A DNA stretch of 64,000 nt from Acidobacteriota bacterium (GTDB taxonomy: Bacteria > Acidobacteriota > Thermoanaerobaculia > Multivoradales > UBA5704): NCBI GenBank assembly GCA_046765915.1, contig JBKPTH010000002.1, positions 28,552 through 92,551 on the forward strand. The letters run 5' to 3'. The notes under the pieces were generated by a model that was not told where the DNA came from, made no database searches, and saw nothing but the letters and a program-made list of their open reading frames with translations. Position 1 is the stretch's first letter; each line of letters opens with the position of its first letter. Position numbers and translations under genes: made by a program. Shown piece by piece: positions 1,461-17,139 of the stretch.

Positions 1461-1463
1461 GGT

Positions 1464-3257
1464 CTATTGGAAGTAGCCGTTGACGTCGATGATCACCTGG
1501 CTGGTGCCGAGGGAGGAGTTCAGCACGCCGATCGTCCCCGCGCCGTTGGTCGCCAGCTCGAGCATCGAGTTGCTGGCGCGGGTCGCTCCCGCCGGGAAGC
1601 CGACCGTGATGATGCCCATCGGGGCGGTGTTGCCCGGATAGATGCCGACGGAGCCGGAGGCGCCGCCGGCGATCACGGTGACGTTGGCGGAGACGGCCTT
1701 GGCGGTCGCCGGGATGCCGCAGGCTCCGGTGACGGTGAAGAGGCGGGTCCCGTTGGGAGCCAGGGCCGGGCCGCCGAGCGGGCCGTTGGGGTTGCGGGTA
1801 TCCAGCACGCGGCAAGGAGCCAGCGTATAGAAGTCCGTCGGCGCCGGAGGCGTGGGGGCGACCGGAGCCAGGCAGGCCGGATTGGCGTTGGCCGTCGTCG
1901 TCACGTAGCCGCTCATCCGCGCCGCCTCGCGCCCGGGCTGCACGCCGTAGGGGTGGCCGGTGCCGAAGTCGAGGCTGATGTCGCTGTAGCTGCCGCGCAC
2001 CAGGTGGCAGTAGCTCATGATCGTGCCGCTGCCGGCGCCCGCCGGGCCCGGCAGGGAGGTGGCGCCGGAGTAGCAGCCGCCCTCGCCGGAGTAGCACTGG
2101 TCGATGGGGCTGGCGCTGCCGCCGATGCCGTTGTAGCAGTGGGCGTGGGGCGAGTTGAAGTTGTGGCCGATCTCGTGCGCCACGGCCATGATGTCCCACA
2201 TCACGGTCGGCGCGTTGATGTTGAAGGTGCCGGTGATGCTGGCGGTGAAACCATAGCCGCCGCCCCAGTTAGCGTCCGTCGGCAGGCCCGGACAACTGGC
2301 GCTGGCGCCGAAACCGCCCGAGCACAGCACGCCCAGCCAGGCGATGCCGCCGCCCAGGTTCTTGCCGCTCAGGAAGTGGGCGATGGTCCGTGAGACGCCC
2401 GTCTTGTTGAGGTTCCAGTAGCGGCCGAACTCCATCAGGCCGCACAGGGTGCTGCCGGTCTGCGTCCAGGGATCGCTGGGCGTGGTCCACAGGCTGACGG
2501 ACTGGACGAGGAGCGACGTGCTGATCTCGTTGACGTAGATGGTGGAGGCGTAGCCGATCAGGTTGCCGGCGTAGGTGGTGGCGGTGGCGGCGTTGTTGAA
2601 CTTGGCGTAGTACTCGTAATCGGTCTCGACCGCCACCCGCGCCGTGTGCAGCACGCTGCCCGTCGCGGCCGGGTCGGCTGCCGCCGCCGGCTCGGCGTTG
2701 AGCACCAGGTCCTCCAGGGGATGTTGATTCTGCGGCAGCGCGGTGTTGCCGCAGGCGAAGCCCTCGCCGCGCGCCGCCTTCATCATCACCGGCTCCACCC
2801 GCCGCATCTCCAGCGGCGCGCCCACGGCCTTGGCGGCAACCTCGTCGCCGCCGATCATGTAGGTGTCTTCCCCGCGGGTGACGATCCCCTCCGTCCTGCC
2901 GTCGGGGAGCACGCTGAGGAACACCCGCGAGCCCGGCTCGCCGTCGACGGTGCCGCGGAAGTAGGTGTTGGCCGGTGCCGGCAGCACCTTGGTGGCGCCG
3001 CCCTTGCCGTGAACGGTGATCTTGGCGTCGTCGGCGAACACCTGGAAGCGCTGCAGCACGAACGCCGCGGCCTCTCCCGTGTCCGCCACCTGCACGTTCT
3101 CCAGCCGCAACTCTGCGCCGATCGGCGCCCCGGCGGCCACCTGCGGGAAGTCTCTGCTCTCGATGGACGTGGTGTGCGGCTCTGCCGCGGCGGCCGGCGC
3201 TGCGGCGACCAACAACGCGCAGACGGCCAGGAGCGTTCGGTTCAGGGTCCAGCGCAT
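1464..3257 (-). CDS. secreted metzincin-like zinc metalloprotease with the same recurrent C-terminal domain
   Basis: There is an N-terminal signal peptide (MRWTLNRTLLAVCALLVAAAPAAAA). The zinc motif HEIGHNFNSPH has His at positions 1, 5 and 11. The C-terminus carries PCRVLDTR...CGIP...NVTV...VIIDVNGYFQ. Confidence 0.6.
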   Translation of the reverse strand: MRWTLNRTLLAVCALLVAAAPAAAAEPHTTSIESRDFPQVAAGAPIGAELRLENVQVADTGEAAAFVLQRFQVFADDAKITVHGKGGATKVLPAPANTYFRGTVDGEPGSRVFLSVLPDGRTEGIVTRGEDTYMIGGDEVAAKAVGAPLEMRRVEPVMMKAARGEGFACGNTALPQNQHPLEDLVLNAEPAAAADPAATGSVLHTARVAVETDYEYYAKFNNAATATTYAGNLIGYASTIYVNEISTSLLVQSVSLWTTPSDPWTQTGSTLCGLMEFGRYWNLNKTGVSRTIAHFLSGKNLGGGIAWLGVLCSGGFGASASCPGLPTDANWGGGYGFTASITGTFNINAPTVMWDIMAVAHEIGHNFNSPHAHCYNGIGGSASPIDQCYSGEGGCYSGATSLPGPAGAGSGTIMSYCHLVRGSYSDISLDFGTGHPYGVQPGREAARMSGYVTTTANANPACLAPVAPTPPAPTDFYTLAPCRVLDTRNPNGPLGGPALAPNGTRLFTVTGACGIPATAKAVSANVTVIAGGASGSVGIYPGNTAPMGIITVGFPAGATRASNSMLELATNGAGTIGVLNSSLGTSQVIIDVNGYFQ

Positions 3258-3559
3258 CGGTACCTCTCTCACCAGGGCAGACGCCCGTCGTTGTTCTTCT
3301 TCGAGACGGGAGGATTGTGCGGGACGCAGGCGCCTATGTCAATCCGCGCATGCCTGTGTGTCCCAATTTTTGTCAGCGGGACTGTCACTCCGCGTCCCGT
3401 CGCGTTCTGTGGCCATCCTCGCAAGATGCCTGGAATCAACGTTTTCTCTCCTGGGAACAGCCAACGACGAGAGAGATAAACGCAAACTCCAGGCCCGGTA
3501 AGACGGCCGTCCGCCGGCCCTGAATTTCCCGCCGGGAGCCCGCCGGCGCTCGTGATACT

Positions 3560-5734
3560 GTGCCCGTCTCCATGCGACCCGTGCCTCTCCCGCTGTACGG
3601 AGATCCGGCTCGAGTTCCGCCCGACCGCCCTCCCGGGGCCGTGGACGTCGTCGTACCGGTAGCCGGCGCGCCGGAGGCTTTCTCCCGCTGCCTCGACAGC
3701 CTCCTCGTTCATACCGACCTCGCGCGGGACCGGCTGGTGGTGGTGCTCGACGGGCCGCAGCCGGCGGCGACGGCAGAGCGCGTCGAGCGCCTGCGCCGGG
3801 AGCGGCCCGAAGGAGTCCTCGTCCTGGAAAACCCGCGGCGGCAGGGATTCGTCGCCGCCGTCAACCGCGGGCTGGCGGTTTCCGGCCGCGACGTCATCCT
3901 GCTCAACAGCGATACGCGGGTCACCGCGGGCTGGGTGCGCAAGCTCCAGGCGGCCGCCTATTCGGCGCCGGAGATCGCCACCGTGACGCCGTTCTCCAAC
4001 AGCGCCACCATCTGCTCGCTGCCGCGCTTCCTGGAGGCCAACGCCCTGCCCGCCGGCTGGGACGCCGACGCCTTCGGGCGTCTCGTCGAGGAGCGTTCGC
4101 GGCGGGCCTACCCGCGCCTGCCCACCGGCGTCGGCGTGTGCCTCTACGTCAAGCGCAAGGTCCTCGACGACGTCGGTCCCCTCGACGTCAAGAGCTTCGG
4201 CGAGGGCTACGGCGAGGAGAGCGAGCTCTGCATGCGGGCGCTCAAGGCGGGCTACGCGCATGCGCTGGACGACGCGACCTTCATCTTCCACGAGGGGCAG
4301 CGGAGCTTCGGCCCCAGCCGCCGGAAGAGGACGAAGGCCGCTCACCGGGCGATGCGGCGGCTGCATCCGGAGTATCTCGCCACGGTGGCGAGCTTCCTGC
4401 GCGAGGACCCGATCCGCCCCTTGCGCGAGCGCGTGGTCTCGGCGCTGATCCCCAAGCGGAGCTCACCCGACCTGCGCCGCCCGGTCAGGATCCTGCACCT
4501 GGTGCACGGCTGGCCGCCCTGGAACTCCGCGGGCACCGAGCTCTATGCCGCCTGGCTCGCCCGGCGGCAGGTTTGCCGGCGCGAAGTCACGGTCTACGCG
4601 CGCCTCGCCGACCCGCAGCAGCCCAACGGCGAGGCCGTGGAGCTCCTCGATCGCGGCGTCCGCGTACGGCTGATCGTCAACAATTTCACCCAGCGCGATC
4701 CGCTGGCGCGCAATGCCTTGCGGGACCGGGCGATCGAGGCGGACTTCGCGCGCCTGCTGGCGGAGACGGCGCCGGGGCTCCTCCACGTGCACCACCTGGC
4801 GGGGCACACCGCTTCCCTCGTCGGCGCGGCGGCGCGGCGGGGCATTCCGGTGGTCTTTCAGCTCCAGGACTGGTGGCAGGCCTGCGCCCGTGTCAATCTG
4901 CTGGACGCGTGGGGCCGCCTCTGCAGCGGCCCGGGGATCGGCAAGTGCGCGGCCTGCCGGCCGCTCACCGGCCTGCCGCCGGCCGCGGTGCTCAACCGGG
5001 CGCTCTACGCCTGGCGCGCCTCCCGGATGAAGCGCGCGCTACGCCAGGCGGACGCCTTCGTCATGGGCTCGCGCTGCATCCATGAGAGCTACCTGGAGCT
5101 CGGCTACCTGCGGCCGGAGGACCCGGCTTTCGTGATTCCGTACGGCGTGGATCTGCCGCCGCGGCTGGAACGGCGGCCTCGGCGGCCGGGCGAGCCCCTG
5201 CGCTTCGGAGTGATCGGCTCGCTCCTGCCGCACAAGGGGATTCACGTCGCGGCGGCCGCCTTCGCGGGGATGGATCCGGGCCGGGCGCGGCTGGCGATCT
5301 GGGGCGATCCGTCCGTCGATCCCTCCTATGCGGAAGCGCTGCTCGGATCGGCCGCCGTGGAGCTGCGCGGGCGCTTCGAGGAGCAGCGGAAGCCGGAGGT
5401 CTTCGCCGAGCTCGACGCCTTGATCGTGCCCTCGCTCGGCCTCGAGTCGTTCGGCCTGGTGGCGCGCGAAGCCCTCTACCACGGCGTGCCCGTGCTGGCG
5501 AGCGACCGTGGCGCGCTGCCGGAGCTCTTCGCGGGTCCGGGGGCGTACGGCGCGCTCTTCGATCCGGAGGATCCGGCGTCGCTGCGCGCCTGGATCGAGC
5601 GGTTGATCGCGGAGCCGGAGATCCTGGACCGTTGGACGGCCGCGCTGCCGGCCGTCAAGGGGATGGACGAGCACGCAGAGGAGATCGAGGGGGTCTACGA
5701 GCGGGTGCTGAGCCGGCGGAGGCCCTCGCGATGA
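3560..5734 (+). CDS. bifunctional glycosyltransferase: N-terminal GT2 domain fused to C-terminal GT4 (GT-B) domain
   Basis: The N-terminal Rossmann GT2 signature is present (VVPVAG...VVLDGPQP...LLNSDTRV). The C-terminal GT4 has the E-x7-E motif region (LIVPSLGLESFGLVAREALYHGVPVLASDRGALPELF). Start is GTG 3560 or ATG 3572. Confidence 0.7.
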   Translation: MPVSMRPVPLPLYGDPARVPPDRPPGAVDVVVPVAGAPEAFSRCLDSLLVHTDLARDRLVVVLDGPQPAATAERVERLRRERPEGVLVLENPRRQGFVAAVNRGLAVSGRDVILLNSDTRVTAGWVRKLQAAAYSAPEIATVTPFSNSATICSLPRFLEANALPAGWDADAFGRLVEERSRRAYPRLPTGVGVCLYVKRKVLDDVGPLDVKSFGEGYGEESELCMRALKAGYAHALDDATFIFHEGQRSFGPSRRKRTKAAHRAMRRLHPEYLATVASFLREDPIRPLRERVVSALIPKRSSPDLRRPVRILHLVHGWPPWNSAGTELYAAWLARRQVCRREVTVYARLADPQQPNGEAVELLDRGVRVRLIVNNFTQRDPLARNALRDRAIEADFARLLAETAPGLLHVHHLAGHTASLVGAAARRGIPVVFQLQDWWQACARVNLLDAWGRLCSGPGIGKCAACRPLTGLPPAAVLNRALYAWRASRMKRALRQADAFVMGSRCIHESYLELGYLRPEDPAFVIPYGVDLPPRLERRPRRPGEPLRFGVIGSLLPHKGIHVAAAAFAGMDPGRARLAIWGDPSVDPSYAEALLGSAAVELRGRFEEQRKPEVFAELDALIVPSLGLESFGLVAREALYHGVPVLASDRGALPELFAGPGAYGALFDPEDPASLRAWIERLIAEPEILDRWTAALPAVKGMDEHAEEIEGVYERVLSRRRPSR

Positions 5735-6960
5735 AACGCCTTGCCGTTTCCTGGCGGGTGCTGCGGACGGAGGGGATCCTTGCCTTTCGTGACCGTGCCC
5801 TCGACCGGATGAGCGAGAATCGAAGACGGCGATCGTTCTCCTCCGCGTCATCGGATTGGCGCCCACCTCAGCCCATTCCCGTCCTCAACCTGTCGGCGAC
5901 GCCTCCGGCCCCGCAACTGGGGGGCGTGCAATCGCAGCTCCTGCGCAGGATCGAGGCCGAGCGGCGGCCGGTCGCTCTCCTTTATTCACGACCAGACGGG
6001 TGGCGCCTGGAGATCGCGGCGGCGGGGGAACGGCGATCCCTGCGTTTTCCGGGATCTCCTCCCACCCCCATCGCGCTGGAGGACTCCGCGTTCGAAGATG
6101 CGGTCCGCTCGGCCGCCGAGATCCTGGGCGCCCGGATTCTGCACGTCGAGGGGCTTTACGGTCTGCCGCCGGGCTCGCTGCTGCGGCTTCAACGCGAAGG
6201 CCTGGAGCTGAGCCTCGCGCTCCACGACTTCGCCGTCTTCTGTCCGCGGCCGCACCTGCTGGAGCGTCCGCAGCTTCAGTTCTGCTGGTACTCGCGGGAC
6301 CTCGGCCGCTGCGGGCGCTGCCTGCGCCAGGACTGGCCCGTCGAGGACGTCTTTCAGCAGGCGCGGCGGGAGATCGCAGCCGAGCTCCTGGCCGGCGCCC
6401 CCTCGCTCGTCTTTCCCTCGGAGTTCCTACGGCGCACCTATCAGGATCTCTTTCCGGGGCTTGCGCCGGAGCGCCTGCGCGTCGTCGCGCCGGCGGGAGA
6501 GCCGATCGCGTCCCCGCCAGCCCCTGGTCCGGTTCGGCACGTTGCGCTGGTCGGAGGGGTCCAGGCGCACAAGGGAGCCCTCGTCTTCGAGGAAGTGGTG
6601 AGGCGGATGGCGGGGGAGGGCTTGCGCTGGACCGCCTACGGAGGAGGGGAGGCGGAGCTGCTGGCCAGGCTTCGCCGGCTGCCGCGGGTGCGCATCCGCG
6701 GCTACTACCGGAGCGGTACCCTGCCGCGCCTGCTGCGGCGCGACCACGTCGACGAGGCGCTCCTCCTCTCGATCGTCCCCGAGTCGTACAGCCTGGTCCT
6801 CGACGAATGCGTGAGCGCCGGTGTACCGGTCCTGGCGTTCGATCTGGGCGCCGTGGGGGAACGCCTGCCGCGGCTCGGAGCGGGTCGACTGGTTCCCCTG
6901 GAGGAGGGCGCCGAAGGAATGGTTCGGGCGTTGAAACGCGCTACACTACCGCCCCCGTGA
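5731..6960 (+). CDS. GT4-family (GT-B) glycosyltransferase
   Basis: ATGA overlap with the upstream stop indicates translational coupling. The C-terminal region ALVGGVQAHKG...SIVPESYSLVLDECVSAGVPVLAFDLGA is typical of group-1 glycosyltransferases. Confidence 0.55.
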   Translation: MKRLAVSWRVLRTEGILAFRDRALDRMSENRRRRSFSSASSDWRPPQPIPVLNLSATPPAPQLGGVQSQLLRRIEAERRPVALLYSRPDGWRLEIAAAGERRSLRFPGSPPTPIALEDSAFEDAVRSAAEILGARILHVEGLYGLPPGSLLRLQREGLELSLALHDFAVFCPRPHLLERPQLQFCWYSRDLGRCGRCLRQDWPVEDVFQQARREIAAELLAGAPSLVFPSEFLRRTYQDLFPGLAPERLRVVAPAGEPIASPPAPGPVRHVALVGGVQAHKGALVFEEVVRRMAGEGLRWTAYGGGEAELLARLRRLPRVRIRGYYRSGTLPRLLRRDHVDEALLLSIVPESYSLVLDECVSAGVPVLAFDLGAVGERLPRLGAGRLVPLEEGAEGMVRALKRATLPPP

Positions 6961-7227
6961 GCAGCCCGCCTATCCGCGCATGGCTGGCATGCCGGGTCCG
7001 GGCTTCGCCGCCGGTCCCTGTCTGGTCAAGGACACGATGCAGCTCGCCGCCTTCAGCCACAACCATTTCATGCTCGGGCACGCCGCCATGCTGGTGAACG
7101 AGGGCCTGCCCGGCCGGTCATGAGGTCGTGGGAATCGACGCCTCCCCCGCGGCGGCCGTCGTCCGCGACACCGCCCGGCGTGGCTGGCGCTCTACCGGGA
7201 GCTGGGACTGTTTCCCTAGGCTCTTGC

Positions 7228-8724
7228 TCAGCCGGCAACGCCAGCCTCGGCGACGGCCGGGGCGGCCTCGGCGCGCTCGGCCGGGGCGTCGACGCGCCGG
7301 GCAACGGCGATGATGCCCAGGCCTGGACCGGGGAGGTGGGGATCGAGCCTGCGGATCAGCGGCACCAGCACGTTGAACACCTTGAGCTGCACACGGCTGA
7401 AATAGCGCCGCTTGAGGAGCTTGCCGTTGAGCCACCAGCCCGGGACCGAGAGGTGGTTGAAGTCGCGGAAGCTCTCCACCTCGAAGCCGGTGGCGCGCAG
7501 CTCGCGGGCGAGCTGCGCTTTCGAGTAGCGGCAGCGGTGCCCCAGCACCTCGTCGAGCGTCGAATACAGCTCCTGGCCCTGCGGCACGTAGAGCAGCAGC
7601 CGGCCCCCGGGCTCGAGGGCGCTCGCCATGTTGCGCAGCGCCACCAGGGGATCGCGCACATGCTCCAGCACGTTCAGGCAGACGACCGTGTCGAACCGCC
7701 CGCGCCACGGCTCGAAGCAGCGCGGGTCTTCGAGGTCGATGCGGTCGACCTGCAGATAGGGCTTGCCCAGGGCAAGGTTGCGCAGGTACTGGAGATAGTG
7801 CGGATTGATGTCGCTCGCCACGTAAAGGTCGCGGGGCAGGAGCCAGGCGGTGATGTTGCCGATGCCGGCGCCGATCTCGAGCACCCGCGCGCCGCCGTAG
7901 GGCAGGATGGCTTCGGCCATCCAGCGGTTGAAGCGCTGCGCCCGCTCGAGACTGTGGAGGATGTGGGAACCGTACTCGTCTTCGGTGTAGACATCGTCGA
8001 GGATCCAGTAGCGCAGGACGGCGCGCAGGGCCTTGAAGGCGTCCTTCCAGCCGATCTTCTTGCCCTCGCGATAGGTGCGGCCGAGGTAGCTGATCGGCAC
8101 CTCGAAGACGCGGCACTCGCGCTTGGCGACCTTGGCGGTGATCTCCGGCTCCAGGGCGAAGTCGTTCGAGCGGATCGGGATCGACTTCAGAAGCGGCGCC
8201 CGGAACATTTTGTAGCAGGTCTCCATGTCCGTCAGGTTCAGGTCGGTGAACCAGTTGCTCAAGGTGGTCAGGAGACGGTTGCCGAGCGTGTGGCGGTAGT
8301 AGAGGACGCGGCGGCGCTCGCTGGGCAGGAAGCGCGAGCCGTAGACCACGTCCGCGCCGTCCTCGAGGAACGGCTTGGCGAGCCGGGCGTAGTCGCGCGG
8401 GTCGTACTCCAGGTCGGCGTCCTGGAAGACGATGAGGTCGCCGGTGGCCGCGGCGATGCCGGTGCGGATGGCCGCCCCTTTGCCCTGGTTGCGCTCGTGC
8501 TCGATGTAGCGGATCATCTCGGGGTGCCCGGCGGCCAGCCGGCGTAGGATGTCGCGGGTGCCGTCCTTCGAGCCGTCGTCGACAACGATGACCTCCAAGC
8601 CCTGGATGCCGGGCACCTCGACGGCGAGCACGCGGTGCAGCAGCTCTGCAACGAGAAACCGCTCGTTGTAGACGGGGACGACGACGGAGAGCTTGAGTTC
8701 TTGGCTGTTGGCCTGTCCGAGCAT
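7228..8724 (-). CDS. GT2 polyprenyl-phosphate sugar synthase-like (Dpm1/GtrB-type) fused to C-terminal class I SAM-dependent methyltransferase
   Basis: The N-terminus (LSVVVPVYNE...VIVVDDGSKDGT...VVYGSRF) is Dpm1-like. The C-terminus (VLEIGAGIGNITAWLL...VVCLNVLEHVRDP...EPGGRLLLYVPQ) is a class I methyltransferase fold. Confidence 0.7.
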   Translation of the reverse strand: MLGQANSQELKLSVVVPVYNERFLVAELLHRVLAVEVPGIQGLEVIVVDDGSKDGTRDILRRLAAGHPEMIRYIEHERNQGKGAAIRTGIAAATGDLIVFQDADLEYDPRDYARLAKPFLEDGADVVYGSRFLPSERRRVLYYRHTLGNRLLTTLSNWFTDLNLTDMETCYKMFRAPLLKSIPIRSNDFALEPEITAKVAKRECRVFEVPISYLGRTYREGKKIGWKDAFKALRAVLRYWILDDVYTEDEYGSHILHSLERAQRFNRWMAEAILPYGGARVLEIGAGIGNITAWLLPRDLYVASDINPHYLQYLRNLALGKPYLQVDRIDLEDPRCFEPWRGRFDTVVCLNVLEHVRDPLVALRNMASALEPGGRLLLYVPQGQELYSTLDEVLGHRCRYSKAQLARELRATGFEVESFRDFNHLSVPGWWLNGKLLKRRYFSRVQLKVFNVLVPLIRRLDPHLPGPGLGIIAVARRVDAPAERAEAAPAVAEAGVAG

Positions 8725-8758
8725 GGGATCTCTCGAGCAGCGTACGATAACACGCTGG
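8600..8758. repeat. copy 1 of a ~155 bp imperfect direct repeat (5' coding end plus leader of the GT2-methyltransferase gene)
   Basis: It is ~85% identical to 10195-10348 and includes the ATG, ~35 bp of leader and an inverted repeat CAGCGT-N8-ACGCTG. Confidence 0.8.
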
Positions 8759-8776
8759 CCGCGGAGCTAGGTGGAC

Positions 8777-8830
8777 ATGCCGAGCGGGCAATTGCAGGTC
8801 ATCCTGGACGTCAACGGCTACTTCCAATAA
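8777..8830 (+). pseudogene. relic C-terminal fragment of the recurrent VNGYFQ domain (MPSGQLQVILDVNGYFQ*)
   Basis: The 17-codon ORF ends with the same ...VI.DVNGYFQ-stop tail as 1464-3257. It lies between two minus-strand genes with no upstream body. Confidence 0.4.
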
Positions 8831-10313
8831 CGCGCCGCTCGCCTCCATCGAGCCAGGCCCCTGGATACGTTTTTTCCTTGGGCACCCCCATGAGCTCCAG
8901 GAGCCGCATGGGGGCGAAGCCCCCCTGAAGCTCCAGCACGTACGGCGTGTTGTGCAGCCGCCAGAGGTTGTCGAAGTTCGCATTCAGGATCGGCTCACTA
9001 CCGCCCTGATAGATGAAGGCGCCGACCGCCTGCACCCAAACCGAAAACACACAGGCGGCGACGAACAGCAGCTTCGGCAGCGGGCGCAGCGCCGCCACGA
9101 TGGGCGCAAGCATCCAGATCAAGATCGGCAGCACGTCGGTGAGGAAACGTGGGCCGTAAGAAAACCCGCCGCGCCAATCCGAGCGCGCGTAGAGCAGGAG
9201 TTGGAGCACCACGCCCGTGGCGAGGCACAGGGTGAGCTGGCGCCAACGCGGATCCTCCGAGCTGACACGAAAACGGAGCGGCAGAAACAGCAAGAACGGC
9301 GCGAAGGTGAAAAGGCCTTTGCCGGGACTGAAGAGCAGTCCCACAATTCCTACGGGGATTGGCTGGGAGAAGAACTGGGACCCGGCTAGAATGATGCCGT
9401 AGCCGCCGCTCACATTCCCGAACATCCAAAGGTTATAGGCCAGCGTCAACGCAGCCGGGATCGCAGCGGCGGCGAAAAAGGCGACCGCCCGCCTGCGGGC
9501 CCAGGGGAGAGCATAGGCGGCGAAGCCGACCGCCAACAGAGCATTCGCGGGGCGGTTCGCGGGTAGGAGGCCGGTGGCCAGCCCGGCCGCGATCACGTTG
9601 CCCCATCGCGGCTGCCGGGACATCAGCAAGAGGCTCGCCGTCACGAACAGCTCGGTGGCGCCGTGCTGCCAGAGGGCTTGGCTGCTGCTCATCCAGTGGT
9701 TGGTGCCGAAGGCATAGGCGCCAGTCACGAGCAGGGCCTCCTGCACGGCGACGCGGCGCCTGAGCAGCAGGAACATGAGGCCCACCGTCAGGGCGGCGAC
9801 GGTCGATGCCGCCACCTTTTCCATGATCTCGCCGACCACAGCGAGGCGTTGATCGGACCTTCCGCTCTGGTGCAGGTAGAGGACGGCGGGTAAGTACAGC
9901 GGGGTGACCAGCAGCGGCGTCACCACCGGGTAGGTCGAGGCCGTCCGGCCGTCGCGCGAGGTGAGAATCCAATAGATGATGGAATGGGGATACCCTCCGC
10001 GGGTCGCCTCGAGGACGGAGTCGAGGTGCAGGCTTCCCTCCTCCCAGATCGCGAACGGCAGGAAACGGGCCGGCAGCGAGTCGCCGGTCGCAATGGTGCG
10101 GAAATTGGCGTTGTAGACGAGCAAGGACAGAAAAGCCAGCAGGACCGCCAGATAGAGGTCCCGGCGCCCCGCCGGCGCCAGAGCGAGCGGGCGACCCTGG
10201 ATGCCGGGCACCTCAACGGCGAGCACGCGGCAGCTCTGCGACGAGGAATCGCTCGTTGTAGACGGGGATGACGACAGGAGCTTGAGCTCTCTGCTGTTGA
10301 CCTGATCGAGCAT
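8811..10313 (-). CDS. polytopic GT-C-like membrane protein (putative lipid-linked-sugar-dependent glycosyltransferase); start supplied by a duplicated GT2 leader and 5' segment
   Basis: About 12 predicted TM helices with a large C-terminal soluble region. The only in-frame start codons (ATG 10313, GTG ~10210) lie inside the duplicated segment. Confidence 0.5.
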   Translation of the reverse strand: MLDQVNSRELKLLSSSPSTTSDSSSQSCRVLAVEVPGIQGRPLALAPAGRRDLYLAVLLAFLSLLVYNANFRTIATGDSLPARFLPFAIWEEGSLHLDSVLEATRGGYPHSIIYWILTSRDGRTASTYPVVTPLLVTPLYLPAVLYLHQSGRSDQRLAVVGEIMEKVAASTVAALTVGLMFLLLRRRVAVQEALLVTGAYAFGTNHWMSSSQALWQHGATELFVTASLLLMSRQPRWGNVIAAGLATGLLPANRPANALLAVGFAAYALPWARRRAVAFFAAAAIPAALTLAYNLWMFGNVSGGYGIILAGSQFFSQPIPVGIVGLLFSPGKGLFTFAPFLLFLPLRFRVSSEDPRWRQLTLCLATGVVLQLLLYARSDWRGGFSYGPRFLTDVLPILIWMLAPIVAALRPLPKLLFVAACVFSVWVQAVGAFIYQGGSEPILNANFDNLWRLHNTPYVLELQGGFAPMRLLELMGVPKEKTYPGAWLDGGERRVIGSSR

Positions 10314-10348
10314 CGGACCTCTCGAACAGCGTATGTTAACACGCTGGC
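10195..10348. repeat. copy 2 of the ~155 bp direct repeat (diverged, with small indels)
   Basis: It aligns to 8600-8758. Its translation (MLDQVNSRELKL...RVLAVEVPGIQG) matches MLGQANSQELKL...RVLAVEVPGIQG, with a frameshifted middle part. Confidence 0.8.
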
Positions 10349-10397
10349 TGCTCTGGTGGCGAAGGGCGAACTCGAGCTGATATAAGATAACAACTTC

Positions 10398-12452
10398 ATG
10401 GAACCGCTCGGCCGATCTTCGCCGCCGGTCACCGGCGTGCCCGACGCCCTGCGCATGCCGCACCCAGTATCCGCGGCGGCCACGGCCCGCCGCTTCACCC
10501 TGGCCCTCGCCCTGGTGGTGCTGGCGGTCGAGCTGGTCCTATATTTCCCGACGCTCGGCGCTTCCTGGGCCTACGACGACATGGACTACCTCAACTTGGC
10601 CGGGGACGTGCTGGCGGGTAAGCGACCGTTCTGGAACATGGTGTTCTTCCCCCAGGGCGAGCACCTAGTGATGATCCAACGCCTGGTCGTCTTCGCCAGC
10701 TTGAAGCTTTTCGGCGTCGACGTGCTCGCCTTCCGCCTGCTGAATCTGGCCGCTCATGCCGCAGCGGCGGTCTTCCTCGGTCTCATGGCGAGACGCGCCA
10801 GCGGGTCGGATGCCGCGGGCCTCGCCACCGGCGTCACCTATGTGGGGGCCGCGGGCCTGTCTTCGATGTGGGTCTGGTTCCCGACCGGCGCCGGCCTGAC
10901 CTTCGGGATCGCCTTCCTGACCGGCGCGGCGGCCGCCCTGGCCCATCGCGCGCGGCTCGGTGTCCGCCGCGCCCGCGTCCTGGCGGGATTGGGGGTCGTG
11001 CTCGGCCTCGCCTCGGAGAGCACGCTCTTCCCGCTGGTGGCGCTCCCCGTACTGCTCGACGAGGCCGAGCGGCGGCGTGAGGGGGCGCGGCGGCCGATCG
11101 GCGCCTTTGCGGTCTTCTGCGCCGTGGCGGTCGTGGCCTGCGTCGGCCTGGCTTCTTTCTTCTACCGCGGGAACTACGGGGGCTCGGGCTTTTCCATCAG
11201 CCTCCGCCACGGCATCCCGCGCGCCGTCTTCCTGATGCTGGTCGCCCCGTTCCGCCTGCTCTTCCCTGGCATTTGGACCGGCGCCTCCGATCCCGGCTTG
11301 AAGACGGCCGTTCTCGGCAGCGCCCTGGGCCTCGCGGTGGCGCTGCCGGCCGTCGCCCTCCTCCTCGCGCTCTGGCGGCGCGGCGCTCCCCGGCTCGCCG
11401 CCATTGCGGCGTTCGCCGCGGTCGGTCCTTTGGGTATAGTGGGACTGGTCGGGCTGGGGCGCTGGCGCACCAGCTACTGGGAGATCTTCGACGCCGACCG
11501 CTACTTCTTCACCTTGCTGATCCCCCTGTCGCTGCTCGCGGGAGCGGTGGCGGCCACCGCCTCCGAGCGCCTGCGGTCCTGGCCCTGGCGTCCCCGGATC
11601 GCTCTGTTGCTGCTGCTGTTCCTCGCTTTCGGCACCGAGCTGGCGCTCCACCGGCGGGCGATGCTCAACCGCATCCCGTTCCATGTCTATGACGACCACG
11701 AGAGGCGGCTGGATCAGCTCTCCCGGCTTGCCGACCGGCTCGAGACCGCGGCGCGGACCCTGCCCCCGGCTGCGCCGCCGCTCGAGTTTCCCGACACCGA
11801 CTTCTGGTTTCCCGAGGTGCACAACGGCCGGATCTCGGCGAGGCTCTTCGTCTACGCCATCTCCGACCGTGCCGACGGCCGCCTGCGCCTCGGCGGTCTG
11901 CGCGTCAGCGAGCGGGATTCCCGAATCCTCAATGCGGTCCTGGCAGCCTGGGCGCAGGAGATCGGCGAGCCGGGTCCCTTCTTGTCGATCGTCGACGGCC
12001 GTCTAGTCGACGCTCGTATTGCCCCCTTCGTCGATTTCCGAACCGATGCGCACGACGCGGTGGTGGTGAGCGGCTTCTACCGCTGGGAAGAGGCCAGCCG
12101 CTGGATGAGCAGGCGCGGCGAGCTGCGCCTGTCCCTGAGGTCGCGGCACCTCGCCTTCCTCCTGGCTGTGCCGCGGGAGGCCCTTGCCGGGCCGCAGGAG
12201 ATCGCGGTGACGGTGACGGCCGTCGACGAGGAGAGCGGCGGCTCGGCCGGGCTCGGCACGATCCACGTCCGGCAGGAAGGGATCCAGCGTTATCCGCTCG
12301 ACGCCAAGCCTTTCCTGGGCCGCATGGGGGCCGGCCGCATCGTCCGCCTCGTGCTGGAGAGCGACCGCACGTGGCGGCCGGACGCCACGATTCCGGGCTC
12401 GCTCGACCCCCGGCCTCTTTCCGTCCAGGTCTTTGCCGCGGGCTGCGAGTAG
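10398..12452 (+). CDS. polytopic membrane protein with C-terminal soluble domain, GT-C-like (possible glycosyltransferase)
   Basis: About 11 TM helices. The first loop carries the acidic motif WAYDDMDY, reminiscent of GT-C catalytic loops. It is divergent from the neighbouring membrane-protein gene. Confidence 0.45.
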   Translation: MEPLGRSSPPVTGVPDALRMPHPVSAAATARRFTLALALVVLAVELVLYFPTLGASWAYDDMDYLNLAGDVLAGKRPFWNMVFFPQGEHLVMIQRLVVFASLKLFGVDVLAFRLLNLAAHAAAAVFLGLMARRASGSDAAGLATGVTYVGAAGLSSMWVWFPTGAGLTFGIAFLTGAAAALAHRARLGVRRARVLAGLGVVLGLASESTLFPLVALPVLLDEAERRREGARRPIGAFAVFCAVAVVACVGLASFFYRGNYGGSGFSISLRHGIPRAVFLMLVAPFRLLFPGIWTGASDPGLKTAVLGSALGLAVALPAVALLLALWRRGAPRLAAIAAFAAVGPLGIVGLVGLGRWRTSYWEIFDADRYFFTLLIPLSLLAGAVAATASERLRSWPWRPRIALLLLLFLAFGTELALHRRAMLNRIPFHVYDDHERRLDQLSRLADRLETAARTLPPAAPPLEFPDTDFWFPEVHNGRISARLFVYAISDRADGRLRLGGLRVSERDSRILNAVLAAWAQEIGEPGPFLSIVDGRLVDARIAPFVDFRTDAHDAVVVSGFYRWEEASRWMSRRGELRLSLRSRHLAFLLAVPREALAGPQEIAVTVTAVDEESGGSAGLGTIHVRQEGIQRYPLDAKPFLGRMGAGRIVRLVLESDRTWRPDATIPGSLDPRPLSVQVFAAGCE

Positions 12453-12459
12453 CCGCTTG

Positions 12460-14991
12460 CTACCGCCCTGATTTCCGGAGCTCCCAATCGCTTGCGCTCT
12501 GCACGCTTGGCCCGGCTCCTGGGGTCCGTTTCCTGTCACGCCACAGAGCCGTGCCGATCAGCGCGAGGACGATCAACGCCGCTGCGAGAGACGCCACCAG
12601 TCCTGGCAGCAGACCCGGCGGAAAGTAGCTCAGCTCGACGACCAAGTCCCCGGCCGGCACCCGCACTGCGCGGAAGGCGTAGTTCGCCGCCAGGATCGGT
12701 GCAGGCCGCCCGTTGACGGTCGCCCGCCAGCCGGGGAAGAAAGACTCCGAGCAGTAGACCAGGCCGGGCCGCGGCGCATGGACCCGCAGCGTCACGCGGT
12801 TGCGCGAGAGCTCTTCCACCACGACCGGCGGCTCTCTCCCATCGTTCGGCACCGACGGAAACGCTGGCGGTTGCTCGACCAGGACCTCACGGTCAGCGCG
12901 GACCTCTGCCAGAGCCGGTAGGATCTTCTCGCGCGGCAGCCGGCGGTAGCGCGAAGTGAAGTAGTACCGGGGCGGCGTCGCTCTCTCGAACAGCCGCACG
13001 TAGCCGTCCGCGAAGAACTCTCTGTATCCCCTCTTAGCAGCTTCGACCGCTAGCGCGGAGCGGTCGACTTCGCGGATCGCCAGTAGCCCTACGTTGGCCG
13101 CATCGAGGACACCGTCGGGGGGCAACAGCGAAGCCTCACTGAGGAACAGGTAGGCACCCGGGGCCGCGTAGCTCTTGTACAGCTCGAGCATGCGCGGCGG
13201 GTTGAAAGTCATCATCGAATCGACCTGGAACAGCTCGAAAACCGACGCCGCGTTCGGGTGGAAGGCACCCGCGCCGTAGATGCGCCCCGCGTCCCGCCTT
13301 GCCAGCAGCTTCTGGACGTACGGCACGGGGTGCTTCCAGATGTTCCAGCGATCCTGCCGCGGATAGTAGGTGTTGATCACTCCCTCGACGGCCAGAAGCG
13401 CCACGATCGCGGCGGCGCACAGCCGCCGGCGCTTGACGCTCGGCTCGCGGGCTCCGGCGAGCGTCAGCAGGACCGCCGACGTCACCACGAGCAGGGCCAT
13501 GGCCAGGTACCACCGCGTGAGCCAAGCCGCGGCCTGCGAGTGAGCGAACGTGCCACGAACCAGGGCCACCGTCAGCATACCCAAGAGCACGATTCCCATG
13601 CCCAGGATGACGACCCAGACCCTGGTCCTCGACACCTTGCCACGCAGGAGACGCTCGAGGCCGATCCCCGCCGCGAACCCGAGCAGGATGTTGAGCGGAA
13701 TGCCGAAGTAATGCGCGAAGTGGATGGTCCTCAAGACCGGCAGCCGGGTCAGCGATTGCACGGGCTCGATGCCGGCCAGTTTGAGGACGATGAGCGCCGC
13801 AGCGGTCGCGACCACCACGAAAAACAGCCGGGTGTGCCGGGGCCCGACCCGTCCGGCCAGGCCTGCGATGAGCATGGCGACGACGCCGAGATACGGGAGG
13901 GTGATGCCGAGGCCGCCGATGTCAGGCATCGGCGGGCTCACGAAGACCTTGCCTCCGCCCATGAGAACCGGGGAGAGGAGTTGGGAAAACTGGTACCAAG
14001 GGAGGAAAGTGACCGATGCACCCTGGTAGTGCGCCGTGACCTGAGGGGTTGCTCGCATGACGGCGAAGGCGGGTAGGTAGTAGAAGCCCACCAGCCCCAA
14101 GGAGAGCGCGACGGCCGCCAGATACCGGCCTGCCTGCCGCGCTCTGTCTTCACCCGCCGCGATCAGGACGGTCGCGTACAGCCCTGACAGGCCGAAGGCG
14201 GCGAAGAGCAGCGGCGGAAAACTCGCCAGCGCCATCGCCGCGTAGCCGGCGGCGAGGAGCGCGGCGCGGCACCAGCTCGGCCGATCGAGGAACCACCGGG
14301 TCAGCAGGAGCGCCGGTGGCAGGCAGGCCGCGGTCTGTCCCATGAATGAGCCGACGTTCTGGTTGAGGCCGCCGCAGAAGAGGACTGCCACAGCGGCCGC
14401 AAATGACGCTTCCCGCGACAGGTGATGGCGGCGTAGGAGGAGGTACGAGAAAAAGGCCGCCGACAAAAGGACAGTCAGGAAGTACACGTTCTTGAGCGCC
14501 ACACCGTTGCCCAGCGCCACGAGTACGAGAGAGGGCGGAAAGAAGAACGCGGGGGTGAGATTCGCCATGGCAGGCACGCCCCCTCCCACGTAGGGATCCC
14601 ACCAGGGCAGCTCGCCGCGCCGCAGCCCTCGGCGCAGGAACTCGCCGCCCGGCTCCCATTGCCACCAGGTCGCACCGGCATCGTGGAAGTTTGCATAAGT
14701 CGACAAATTCCTGCTCGTCCAGACCTCGGCGGGCAAGAAGTCGGGTCCCTGGGTCTGCTCGAACATCCGGTAGTCCAGCGGGTTGTAATTGTCGCTGTAG
14801 ACCAGCGAGCGGCCGCCAAACACGACGTTGCAGTATGCCGCCGCAAGGAGCAGCAGGAGCAGGCCGCAGACCGCAGCTGCCTCCCGCAGTGGAATCGCCA
14901 TCCGGGGCTCCCCGGCAGGGGGTTGGACGAGCTTCTCTCCCGCCGGTTGCGCGAGCTCCTCGCCGGCCGCTACGGGACGCTCGTGCGTCAT
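12460..14991 (-). CDS. YfhO-like large polytopic membrane protein (GT-C superfamily-like)
   Basis: An 843 aa protein with many TM helices and a C-terminal extracytoplasmic domain. Its start overlaps the stop of the upstream dehydrogenase gene (ATGA), indicating the same operon. Confidence 0.5.
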   Translation of the reverse strand: MTHERPVAAGEELAQPAGEKLVQPPAGEPRMAIPLREAAAVCGLLLLLLAAAYCNVVFGGRSLVYSDNYNPLDYRMFEQTQGPDFLPAEVWTSRNLSTYANFHDAGATWWQWEPGGEFLRRGLRRGELPWWDPYVGGGVPAMANLTPAFFFPPSLVLVALGNGVALKNVYFLTVLLSAAFFSYLLLRRHHLSREASFAAAVAVLFCGGLNQNVGSFMGQTAACLPPALLLTRWFLDRPSWCRAALLAAGYAAMALASFPPLLFAAFGLSGLYATVLIAAGEDRARQAGRYLAAVALSLGLVGFYYLPAFAVMRATPQVTAHYQGASVTFLPWYQFSQLLSPVLMGGGKVFVSPPMPDIGGLGITLPYLGVVAMLIAGLAGRVGPRHTRLFFVVVATAAALIVLKLAGIEPVQSLTRLPVLRTIHFAHYFGIPLNILLGFAAGIGLERLLRGKVSRTRVWVVILGMGIVLLGMLTVALVRGTFAHSQAAAWLTRWYLAMALLVVTSAVLLTLAGAREPSVKRRRLCAAAIVALLAVEGVINTYYPRQDRWNIWKHPVPYVQKLLARRDAGRIYGAGAFHPNAASVFELFQVDSMMTFNPPRMLELYKSYAAPGAYLFLSEASLLPPDGVLDAANVGLLAIREVDRSALAVEAAKRGYREFFADGYVRLFERATPPRYYFTSRYRRLPREKILPALAEVRADREVLVEQPPAFPSVPNDGREPPVVVEELSRNRVTLRVHAPRPGLVYCSESFFPGWRATVNGRPAPILAANYAFRAVRVPAGDLVVELSYFPPGLLPGLVASLAAALIVLALIGTALWRDRKRTPGAGPSVQSASDWELRKSGR

Positions 14992-16229
14992 AGGACCCCC
15001 GGGGTGAATGCCAGCAGGTTCGGCTGCCGCATGGCGCGCAGGATCTCGTGTTTGCGATAGCGGATCTCGGTGACGATCAGGTCGTGCGGCACCAGGATCG
15101 CCAGCGCATCCGCGCCGCGCGCCACCGCCAGGACCGAGTCGCAGGCCATGCCGGAGACGAGGGGATCGTAGAGCGCGACGTCGAGCCCTCGCGACTGGAG
15201 GATTCCGAACACTTCCATCGCCGGGCTCTCGCGCAGGTCGCGCACGTTCGGCTTGTAGGTGGCTCCGAGGCAGACGACTCTCGGCCTCTCCACGCCGTCG
15301 ACCGCGGCGCAGATCTTGTCCGCCGTGCGCGCCGGCATCGCGTCATTGAGCTGGCGTGCGGCGCACAGCAGCCCGCTGAGGTCGGGGCAGGCGGCGACCA
15401 GGAACCACGGGTCCACCGGGATGCAGTGGCCGCCGACGCCGATGCCGGGCTTCAAGATGTCCACCCGCGGATGGTGGTTGGCGAGCTCGATCGCCTCCCC
15501 CGCGTCGATGCCCAGCCGCTCGCAGAGCACGGCCACCTGGTTCGCAAACGCGACGTTGACGTCGCGATAGGAGTTCTCGATCAGCTTGACGAACTCGGCG
15601 GTCCTCGCGTCGGTGAGCAGCAGCCTGCCCTTGACGAAACTGTTCAGCAGCTCGGCCGCCCGCCGGCTGGAGCGCTGGTCCACGCCGCCCACGATCCGCG
15701 CGTTGAACACCGCCTCGGCCATGATGTTGCCCGGCAGCACCCGCTCCGGGCAGTGGGCGAGCAGCAGGTCCGTCCCGACGCGCAGGCCGCCGCGCTCGAG
15801 GATCGGCCGCACGATGTTCTCGGTCGTAAGCGGCGGAATCGTCGACTCCACCACCACCAGATTGCCGCGGCGCAAGAAGGGCAGAATCGACTCGGTCGCC
15901 GCCACGACCGCTTCCAGATCTGGCGCCTTGGTCGCGTGGTCGACCGGCGTGGGCACGGCGATGACGAACGCATCGGCCTCCACCGGCGTGGTCTGCGCCC
16001 GCAGGTTGGCCTGGACGTCCGGGTCCTCGAAGAAGCTCTCGAAGTCCTCCTTCTCCTCGATCTTGGCGCGGCGCTCGTTGATCTCGCGCACCACCTGATC
16101 GTCGATGTCGACGGCGGTAACCTCGAGCCCCGTCTTGGCGAGGTGGAGACAGAGAGGAAGGCCGACGTAGCCGGCACCGACGACGGCCACCGACCGCAAG
16201 GGGGGCAGGCTCAGTGGCTCAGACACCAT
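14988..16229 (-). CDS. UDP-sugar 6-dehydrogenase (UDP-N-acetyl-D-mannosamine / UDP-glucose dehydrogenase family)
   Basis: The N-terminal Rossmann motif VAVVGAGYVGLP is present. The catalytic region is GGHCIPVDPWFL and the C-terminal UDP-binding domain includes LGATYKPNVRDLRESPA. The six-frame ORF is over-extended; the real start is ATG 16229. Confidence 0.8.
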   Translation of the reverse strand: MVSEPLSLPPLRSVAVVGAGYVGLPLCLHLAKTGLEVTAVDIDDQVVREINERRAKIEEKEDFESFFEDPDVQANLRAQTTPVEADAFVIAVPTPVDHATKAPDLEAVVAATESILPFLRRGNLVVVESTIPPLTTENIVRPILERGGLRVGTDLLLAHCPERVLPGNIMAEAVFNARIVGGVDQRSSRRAAELLNSFVKGRLLLTDARTAEFVKLIENSYRDVNVAFANQVAVLCERLGIDAGEAIELANHHPRVDILKPGIGVGGHCIPVDPWFLVAACPDLSGLLCAARQLNDAMPARTADKICAAVDGVERPRVVCLGATYKPNVRDLRESPAMEVFGILQSRGLDVALYDPLVSGMACDSVLAVARGADALAILVPHDLIVTEIRYRKHEILRAMRQPNLLAFTPGVL

Positions 16230-17139
16230 AGTACTCCCGCTGCCAGGCGATGGTGCGCGCGATGCCCTCCTCGAGGCCCACCGTCTCGCGATGATCGAGC
16301 TCGCGGCGGGCGCGCTCGTTGGAGGATTGCTTGTCGCGCGTGTTGTGCGCCTCGGCCGCCAGATAGCGCACCCAGCGATCGTCTTTGCCGAGCTGGGCCA
16401 GAGCGAGGTCCGAGATCGTCTTGATATCGTGCAGGGTATCGCCCGCGATATTGTAGACCGCCCCCGGCCGGAAGCGCTCGCAGATCGTCGCCAGGGTGCG
16501 CGCCGTGTCGTCGATGTAGGTCGAGGTCCGCCGGTGATCGAGGTAGACCGTGTACGGCAGGTCGTGCAGGGCGCAGTAGACGAACTTGCAGATGACGCTC
16601 CGGTACTCGCTGTAGGGCTCTCCCGGGCCATAGGTGTTGAACAGGCGCACGGTGACGGTCTCGGTGCCGTGCAAGGCGGCGGAGTTGCGCACCTGCAGCT
16701 CATTGACCCACTTGGACACGGCGTAGTCGTTGAGCTGTTGGATCGGATTCTGGTCCGGCACGTCCTCGTGCATTACGCCCGCGTAGTCGCCGTAGATCTC
16801 CGAGCTGGAGAAGACGACCATGCGGAAGCGGCGCTTCTCCTGCAGCCGGATCAGGTTCTTGGTGCCCACGGCGTTGGTGCGCCACAACGACTCGTAAAAG
16901 TCCTCGCCGTTGATGCGTCCGAACTCCGCCGCGGCATGATAGACGAGCTCGAACGGCACTTCGTCGAAGACCCGCTCGAGCTGCCGGTGCTCGCCGACGT
17001 CGCAGCGGTAGTAGAAGCTGCCCCGCACGCCGTGGTGGTGTGCGCGATCGAGAACCCAGACCTCGTGTCCCGCCTGGCGCAGCCGCTCGGACAGCGGCGC
17101 GCCGACGGCGCCCAGACCGCCCGTCACCAGAATCTTCAT
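16219..17139 (-). CDS. NAD-dependent epimerase/dehydratase (SDR family)
   Basis: Begins MKILVTGGLGAVG. The motif YAVSK supplies the catalytic Tyr-x3-Lys. Confidence 0.7.
   Translation of the reverse strand: MKILVTGGLGAVGAPLSERLRQAGHEVWVLDRAHHHGVRGSFYYRCDVGEHRQLERVFDEVPFELVYHAAAEFGRINGEDFYESLWRTNAVGTKNLIRLQEKRRFRMVVFSSSEIYGDYAGVMHEDVPDQNPIQQLNDYAVSKWVNELQVRNSAALHGTETVTVRLFNTYGPGEPYSEYRSVICKFVYCALHDLPYTVYLDHRRTSTYIDDTARTLATICERFRPGAVYNIAGDTLHDIKTISDLALAQLGKDDRWVRYLAAEAHNTRDKQSSNERARRELDHRETVGLEEGIARTIAWQREYYGV

Follow-up and report, generated by a model that had tools for sequence, protein, structure and literature searches.

A probable recombination scar that may supply the 5′ end of a GT-C-like glycosyltransferase gene in Thermoanaerobaculia

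The surface-glycan gene cluster described here lies in a 64,000-nt stretch of DNA (positions 28,552 to 92,551 of contig JBKPTH010000002.1, assembly GCA_046765915.1; hereafter the window) from a metagenome-assembled genome (MAG) of Thermoanaerobaculia, phylum Acidobacteriota. In this cluster the 5′ region of an intact gene for a bifunctional GT2 glycosyltransferase/class I methyltransferase (GT2-MT) recurs at the beginning of the neighbouring gene, which encodes a membrane protein with a predicted GT-C fold. The copy that belongs to GT2-MT is called copy A and the one fused to the GT-C gene copy B (Table 1). As a whole, the arrangement is best explained, with moderate confidence, as a recombination scar from which the GT-C gene probably obtains its promoter, ribosome site and ATG. 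Copy B looks like the stub of a once-functional, diverged GT2-MT allele or paralog that was joined to the GT-C gene by illegitimate recombination, and not like a decayed local duplicate.

The repeat and the chimeric gene

Comparison of window positions 8500-8800 with 10150-10400 by BLASTN, a check proposed in a preliminary description of this DNA, returned one alignment (8600-8762 against 10195-10351) with 85.3% identity over 163 columns, 18 mismatches and two gap openings (E 4e-51). That description had reported about 155 bp of the GT2-MT 5′ region recurring at about 85% identity; its coordinates and percentages are accurate, except that the repeat extends 3-4 nt further upstream. The comparison resolves into three gapless blocks of 97, 90 and 84% identity, and the longest exact run common to both copies is about 20 nt. 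The edges of the repeat are sharp, with no homology found upstream of its boundary, and the 64-kb window holds these two copies and no more. Relative to copy A, copy B has lost 1 nt after codon 12 (10278/10277) and 5 nt after codon 28 (10231/10230). Sixteen codons of copy B are thereby frame-shifted (LSSSPSTTSDSSSQSC), after which the GT2 frame returns (RVLAVEVPGIQG is kept, as had been noticed before) and remains open without a stop into the membrane protein.

The chimeric open reading frame (ORF) has five in-frame start codons, namely GTG 10463, ATG 10313, GTG 10226, GTG 10211 and TTG 10124. The first of these lies within the divergent gene that begins at 10398 and the last within the first transmembrane segment (TM1), while the other three, which make up every usable in-frame start, all fall within copy B. 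A Shine-Dalgarno (SD)-like GAGAGG is found 5 nt upstream of ATG 10313. Since all usable starts lie within copy B and the GT-C body looks functional (see below), the translation initiation signal would lie in the GT2-derived stub. The proposal that the repeat provides the sole start and leader of the membrane protein gene holds up on this count (3/3 usable starts inside copy B).

The 500-aa product has no sequence match in Pfam, NCBIfam or the PDB, and PF13231 was found in one distant homolog only. Its family comprises at least 625 database proteins, mostly from Thermoanaerobaculia and without annotation. An AlphaFold2 (AF2) model based on 86 homologs reached a pLDDT of 90.8 and a pTM of 0.89, with residues 1-49 of low confidence; TM1 begins at about residue 50. 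In a Foldseek search against the PDB the top 27 matches are GT-C enzymes without exception (27/27; ArnT, ALG12, STT3, AftA/B, PMT and PimE), including ArnT (5ezm, E 4.8e-05) and ALG12 (TM-score 0.51). By its model the body of the chimeric protein has a GT-C fold, and the earlier label 'GT-C-like' is right at fold level. In GT-C enzymes the first periplasmic loop, which follows TM1, carries an acidic residue for catalysis, and in the family alignment G77-D78, within the segment YNANFRTIATGDSLPARF directly after TM1, is nearly invariant.

The N-terminus of the protein is unusual for the family. The aligned homologs have unrelated, basic tails there, and their starts precede TM1 by 5-75 residues. 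Among 115 family members the YNxN motif, which closes TM1, has a median position of about 27 (range 2-83); in the window protein it stands at position 66, which makes the N-terminal tail the third longest; a GT2-like N-terminus was found elsewhere in none of the 115. The GT-C body itself, about 455 codons, is intact, with all family-invariant residues present. Against the closest homolog (P0002 in the related locus L001, 78% identity) the ratio of nonsynonymous to synonymous substitution rates (dN/dS) is 0.15, and the amino-acid changes unique to the window (21) and to P0002 (33) give no sign of rate acceleration. From these sequence comparisons the GT-C body looks functional. A triple-fusion ancestor (GT2-MT-GT-C) was also considered, and among homologs of 550-870 aa none carries a GT2 or methyltransferase (MT) domain. 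P0002 (L001:6001-6009) starts with MLD (ATGCTCGAC), as does the GT2-derived start in the window (ATGCTCGAT); with no similarity beyond 8 nt, the common start is probably a coincidence.

Origin of copy B

The differences between the two copies are unevenly distributed with respect to the code. In codons 10-42 there are five synonymous changes and one nonsynonymous change, a conservative V/I difference (pS 0.20, pN 0.015), at which copy B has the residue typical of most orthologs. The probability that at least five of six random changes would be synonymous is 0.006. At unconstrained sites (6/38 in the leader, 6/27 in codons 1-9) the divergence is about 0.16-0.22, and neutral decay of copy B predicts some 5-8 nonsynonymous differences at the 65 nonsynonymous sites of codons 10-42, against the single one seen (Poisson p ~0.004-0.03). 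The synonymous bias suggests, therefore, that most of the divergence arose while both copies belonged to working GT2-MT genes; the truncation, fusion and indels of copy B would then be late events.

A plain duplication within the genome would account for the same captured start. In this alternative about 160 bp were copied to a place before the GT-C gene, or else insertion of the GT-C gene duplicated a 160-bp target, and copy B then drifted neutrally to 85% identity. Copies A and B are indeed each other's closest relatives, with a synonymous divergence of about 0.2 that is well below the 0.5-0.57 to the nearest orthologs; they have derived leader features in common that are absent from the orthologs, and the boundaries of the repeat are sharp. 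However, neutral drift is at odds with the one nonsynonymous difference where several are predicted, and with the ortholog-typical residue that copy B has at that one position. What neutral decay looks like may be seen in the decayed stub of a second locus, L021 (see below), in which nonsynonymous differences (17) outnumber synonymous ones (11). A plain 160-bp duplication is accordingly the less likely origin, and we regard it as unlikely. The earlier proposal of regulatory capture by duplication stands in its first half, as a prediction from the positions of the starts and of the putative promoter box in copy B, whereas the synonymous bias favours diverged copies over a duplication.

Illegitimate recombination involving a diverged copy may have taken either of two routes, which are the simplest histories for the repeat. 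The first is homology-facilitated illegitimate recombination (HFIR), in which one crossover falls downstream of codon 42 within GT2-MT and codon 42 itself is linked illegitimately to the GT-C 5′ end. The second is a deletion between two co-resident paralogs. In three related loci (L045:6001-6672, L015:1055-2288 and L016:5178-6438) the GT2-MT ortholog has a tandem GT2 or GT2-MT paralog directly upstream (49% and 26-29% aa identity to the window GT2-MT), so that co-resident paralogs do occur at the GT2-MT border.

In the proposed sequence of events, a GT2-MT gene (the source of copy B, and either a diverged allele of the surviving gene A or a diverged paralog of it) would first have been joined illegitimately, at its codon 42, to the GT-C gene's 5′ end. 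Through this join the GT-C gene would have lost its own start and whatever preceded it, the upstream neighbour in relatives being a methyltransferase gene. A separate small class I methyltransferase gene directly precedes GT-C in three of four related loci (L001:5355-5975, L002:2177-2953 and L006:7090-7836, with L007), and in the fourth, L061, the ORF upstream of GT-C has no Pfam match; in the window this partner gene is absent and the GT2 stub stands in its place. Conserved synteny with the closest GT-C homologs was tried and rejected, the upstream methyltransferases of L001 and L002 being only 31-36% identical to the window MT domain and the divergent neighbours unrelated. The stub left behind consists of an extended -10-like box, a short leader with the SD-like GAGAGG, the ATG and 40 codons, and the join is in frame. 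From its promoter the GT-C gene would be transcribed, with initiation downstream of each -10 box, and translation would start at ATG 10313 or, less likely, at GTG 10226 or 10211. The protein made would have a GT-C body of the normal kind and a disordered cytoplasmic tail that is unusually long (40-50 residues) and of GT2 origin. The intact GT2-MT gene, 86 nt downstream and with its own copy of the promoter and ribosome-binding site (RBS) module, would follow with no terminator between, in that no terminator-like site was found in the spacer. A probable polyprenyl-phosphate-sugar synthase and a probable user of its donor would thus come under the same expression signals.

Near the joint there is a GC-rich similarity of 21-22 nt between CGCCGGCGGGGCGCCGGGACC (window 10157-10177) and CGCCGGCTGGCCGCCGGGCACC (window 8523-8544), of which the first lies 17-38 nt beyond the joint, in the 5′ part of the GT-C gene, and the second in GT2 codons ~61-68. 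Compared with random window segments it is marginal (p ~0.016), and it is possibly microhomology tied to the joint, or chance.

The junction might instead be a dead scar, having removed the promoter and start of the GT-C gene and left it silent or on the way to becoming a pseudogene, with an ORF kept open by recency and high GC. The stub carries two frameshifting indels, and the comparable stub of L021 has a useless gene fragment as its fusion partner. In high-GC DNA, ORFs are lengthened by chance, which the window illustrates with its many overlapping ORFs, and expression of the GT-C gene is a prediction. Set against this are the ~455 intact GT-C codons with their family-invariant residues, the lack of any excess of lineage-specific amino-acid changes, an in-frame join at which the two indels together restore the frame, and an SD-like motif that is improved in copy B (GAGAGA to GAGAGG). 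A dead scar appears a little more doubtful even than a duplication.

The repeated leader

To characterise the leader, the 100 nt upstream of GT2-MT codon 11 were aligned for 13 Thermoanaerobaculia orthologs and copies A and B (15 sequences). The only conserved block upstream of GT2-MT is TG-n-TA-nnn-T, whose flanks are not conserved; alignment columns T43, G44, T46, A47 and T51 are invariant or nearly so (box variants in Table 1). The box lies 19-40 nt ahead of the start codons and is followed after 7-9 nt by TTYGAGRG. TG, TA and the final T are the defining positions of the extended -10 sigma-70 promoter. Both copies keep the invariant positions of the box, and the two differences between them in what had been described as a hairpin loop fall on non-invariant positions of the hexamer. 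The 'loop' is by this comparison a putative conserved extended -10 promoter box, and the 38-nt repeated leader a predicted compact module of promoter box, short leader and ATG, which strengthens the reading as regulatory capture. This assignment is founded on comparative conservation and not on a sigma-70 consensus scan. Like the extended -10 (TGn) class of sigma-70 promoters, the box of the window and its orthologs has the most conserved positions of that class, fixed near the gene start. To our knowledge extended -10 promoters have never been tested in Acidobacteriota, and almost no promoters have been mapped in the phylum.

A longer leader, GTGCTATCAT(GCACCGCC)TTTGAGGAG, is found about 35-45 nt upstream of the GT2-MT starts in L061, L012, L011, L085, L013 and L010, and is probably an extended -10 promoter with its transcript start. 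A similar box precedes the MT/GT-C operons of L001 (GCTATACT) and L002 (TGTATACT).

Each leader contains the inverted repeat CAGCGT-N8-ACGCTG once (8738-8757 and 10327-10346), as had been observed in the preliminary description; the window has exactly these two occurrences, where 0.03 are expected. In that description the inverted repeat was taken for a functional RNA hairpin or a repressor operator, which would place both genes under one regulator; this now seems improbable. The 6-bp arms are perfect in both copies while six of 26 other leader positions differ, yet the contrast with 0/12 stem changes gives p = 0.083 (hypergeometric). The -10 box forms the centre of the repeat, where an operator would typically lie, and a different inverted repeat (GGTGC-TATCAT-GCACC) surrounds the same box in L061, L012 and L011; against this, the arms are absent in 10/13 orthologs and offset by 1 nt in the other three. 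With the -10 box as its loop, only part of the hairpin would be transcribed from this promoter. Its folding energy is not better than that of shuffled sequences (z -0.05 and -1.5), and neither leader has an Rfam match. The proposed search for further copies found no exact one in the rest of the window or in 86 related loci, with near-matches in the window at the level of chance. The palindrome flanking the -10 box is lineage-specific and at most a candidate operator overlapping the promoter.

The leader has a further likeness, in size and location only, to the JUMPStart/ops elements, being about 39 nt long, conserved and ahead of glycan-synthesis genes. The octamer GGCGGTAG is the ops sequence of enterobacterial JUMPStart leaders; unlike these, both window leaders (8725-8810 and 10314-10397) lack it. 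In the window as a whole this octamer occurs 8 times against 2.1 expected (6946, 8292, 8998, 12460, 12942, 20817, 51108 and 53429), an excess that is probably an effect of codon usage.

Several points weigh against a reused recombination scar. The promoter, the transcription start and the translation start of the chimeric gene are all predictions from sequence. Unlike extended -10 sigma-70 promoters, the window box has no recognisable -35 element upstream of it, and no full sigma-70 promoter was called by a simple consensus scan. The test of synonymous bias draws on 6-7 substitutions, and a model in which only copy A was constrained gives p ~0.03-0.06. The two frameshifting indels in the stub may mean decay, and their sum of 6 would restore the frame with a chance of 1 in 3 if they were neutral. 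At the protein level no database genome exceeds about 80% identity for GT2-MT or 78% for GT-C, the database clusters at 90% identity having a single member, and the parental arrangements and the direction of the event are therefore conjectural.

An assembly artefact, in which a chimeric MAG contig joined two strains through their common GT2 5′ region, might be suspected of a metagenome-assembled source in which GT2-MT is highly conserved across co-occurring Thermoanaerobaculia, and is extremely improbable because window 13313-8210 (5.1 kb), with both copies and the junction, recurs at 100% identity in an independent Logan assembly of run SRR20019834 (L087), while exact runs between the copies (at most ~20 nt) are below the k-mer length for a mis-join and the stub-to-GT-C junction has no common sequence.

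Related loci, function and significance

The features of the locus are collected in Table 1. An AT-rich patch lies in the 84-nt region that copy B and the divergent gene have in common. A step in GC content at third codon positions (GC3) is found at the repeat: the genes leftward including GT2-MT (window 18-8724) have values of 0.91-0.94, and the GT-C, 684-aa, YfhO-like and UDP-glucose dehydrogenase-like genes (window 8811-16703) have values of 0.81-0.88. The two blocks may differ in origin, or the step may merely follow from membrane-protein composition. At its other end GT2-MT is longer than its orthologs (498 against 477-480 aa; window 6961-7290) by an Ala/Glu-rich C-terminal extension of about 20 aa, and 268 nt without a called gene follow; L006 and L007 have a 207-aa ORF there.

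Table 1. Coordinates of the repeat, the genes and their signals in the window, with box variants in related loci (L numbers)
Feature	Position	Strand	Remarks
GT2-MT gene, intact bifunctional GT2 glycosyltransferase/class I methyltransferase, 498 aa	7228..8724	minus	carries copy A at 5′ end
Repeat copy A: 38-nt leader and codons 1-42 of GT2-MT	8600..8762	minus	BLASTN
Copy A SD-like GAGAGA	8729-8734	minus	
Copy A extended -10-like box TGTTATCGT	8744..8752 (read 8752-8744)	minus	within inverted repeat 8738-8757; aligns with TG-n-TA-nnn-T block of orthologs
Spacer of 86 nt, GT-C stop to GT2-MT start	8725..8810	minus	repeat covers last 38 nt only
Chimeric ORF, 500 aa: 40 GT2-derived codons fused in frame to GT-C-fold (predicted) membrane glycosyltransferase-like protein	8811..10313	minus	
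Repeat copy B: leader and 40 codons of GT2 origin	10195..10351	minus	junction to GT-C sequence ~10194-10196
ATG, likeliest start of chimeric GT-C ORF	10311..10313	minus	chosen by NCBI and Logan gene callers (P0001, 500 aa)
Alternative in-frame starts GTG, GTG	10224-10226, 10209-10211	minus	both within copy B
Copy B SD-like GAGAGG	10318-10323	minus	
Copy B extended -10-like box TGTTAACAT	10333..10341 (read 10341-10333)	minus	within inverted repeat 10327-10346
Divergent 684-aa gene	10398..12452	plus	no Pfam match
Box GTGCTATCAT	L061, L012, L011, L085, L013, L010		
Box TGCTAACAT	L016		
Box TGCTAAGAT	L015		
Box TGCTACGAT	L008, L009		
Box TGGTATCCT	L003, L005		

The gene upstream of GT2-MT varies among relatives, marking a recombinationally active border. 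In L003-L005 an unrelated membrane protein of 500-528 aa is encoded directly upstream of GT2-MT; these proteins were considered as homologs of the window GT-C protein and are not homologous to it. L006 and L007 have a divergent MT and GT-C pair in this position, with downstream genes in L006 that match those of the window. Between this MT/GT-C operon and GT2-MT, L006 (7876-7945) and the same region of L007 hold about four tandem copies of a 15-nt unit (CACCGACATCGGCTG) that has no counterpart in the window.

A second, independent GT2-MT 5′ stub is found in L021 (CAWAET010000007.1, Thermoanaerobaculia MAG MFD03551.bin.2.56). Here the order is a divergent gene, some 50 codons of GT2, foreign DNA of about 150 nt, a spacer and a full GT2-MT. 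In the region L021:5956-6330 the stub lies in an 86-aa ORF that begins with the GT2 codons (ELSVIVPVCNEHQLVGELL...) and ends in a tail (..DLLGYTPSMDLAGGLQR), with the full gene from 6327. Over 108 nt the stub has 80.6% identity to the full copy, and it is clearly decayed, with PVYNE changed to PVCNE. The tail was tentatively compared with the C-terminus of an NAD-epimerase, to which it has only a weak match (E 0.016, 28 aa) and none in another search. Just downstream, the motif GLQR(TVD) recurs. No GT2-MT 5′ stub beyond that of L021 emerged in a self-search of 80 loci.

The GT2-MT protein contains PF00535 at residues 13-180 (E 4e-38) and Methyltransf_23/class I methyltransferase domains at 277-418 (Pfam), and many Thermoanaerobaculia proteins have 80-84% identity to it. 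In NCBIfam its GT2 domain is best matched by polyprenyl-phosphate sugar synthases (AglJ, PgfS, ArnC and PpgS), all of them below the curated cut-offs (AglJ 88 bits, cut-off 325; ArnC 70 bits, cut-off 529), which amounts to similarity at the level of family and not of equivalog. In Gtr-type and ArnC/ArnT systems a GT2 enzyme synthesizes a polyprenyl-phosphate sugar donor that is used by a GT-C transferase. By analogy, GT2-MT and the adjoining GT-C protein are a plausible pair of donor synthase and donor user. Like the components of Gtr and ArnC/ArnT periplasmic glycosylation, the GT2 protein matches polyprenyl-phosphate sugar synthases, the neighbouring GT-C fold is closest to ArnT, and the two genes are adjacent and co-directional. 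Unlike them, the window GT2 is fused to a methyltransferase domain, its NCBIfam scores are far below equivalog cut-offs and the GT-C family is without a Pfam or NCBIfam model. As to the third component of Gtr systems, no GtrA-like flippase turned up in the window, although no search was directed at one.

Scars of HFIR are known as orphan immunity-gene arrays in Vibrio cholerae clusters for type VI secretion (T6SS) and as orphan 3′ ends at Rhs loci (PMC5361080, citing de Vries & Wackernagel 2002, Prudhomme et al. 2002 and Meier & Wackernagel 2003). As in these cases, a conserved gene in the window would serve as anchor, foreign or variable DNA is joined to it at a non-homologous point, a diverged partial copy of the anchor is left beside the new cassette and the border of the cluster is reshuffled between relatives. 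A diverged partial anchor copy flanking a non-homologous insert, by which HFIR is recognised, is present in the window, and L021 provides a second instance. The likeness lies in the product, which a deletion between two tandem paralogs would also give. In contrast to the orphan 3′ ends and immunity genes of the HFIR examples, the leftover in the window is a 5′ stub with promoter, RBS and start that is apparently reused. In this respect it resembles chimeras formed by promoter or start-codon capture, where a coding body is driven by the 5′ regulatory region and initial codons of a different gene. Unlike the captures usually described, in eukaryotes or laboratory selections, this is a natural bacterial case in which the donor remains intact next door and the donated peptide is frame-shifted into a Ser-rich disordered segment.

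A wider reading, which we put forward as doubtful, would have the promoter and first 40 codons of GT2-MT form a recurrent recombination anchor in Thermoanaerobaculia glycan clusters, from which incoming genes inherit an 'expression stub', with selected deletions and an excisable cassette. The stub of the window and the decayed stub of L021 may both be products of such an anchor. Selection of the two compensating deletions is speculative: through them a GT2 beta1-alpha1 fragment capable of folding (KLSVVVPVYNERFLVAELL) could have become a disordered, Ser-rich tail that suits a membrane protein. Equally speculative is that the direct repeats allow excision of the GT-C cassette by homologous recombination, restoring a single intact GT2-MT, a reaction that would be inefficient because the longest exact match is only ~20 nt.

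The locus is no new kind of system. It is a fresh instance of known processes in a poorly studied phylum, and a fairly ordinary scar. At the same time it is a clean natural example of a bacterial gene without its own 5′ end that was possibly rescued by the stub of a neighbouring gene, complete with promoter box, ribosome site and start codon, and the case shows how the variable borders of glycan clusters are rebuilt around a conserved anchor gene. The putative extended -10 consensus (TGCTATCAT-like) ahead of a widespread Thermoanaerobaculia gene may serve as a usable promoter hint for the phylum, and an unannotated family can now be placed, by structure prediction, in the GT-C fold.

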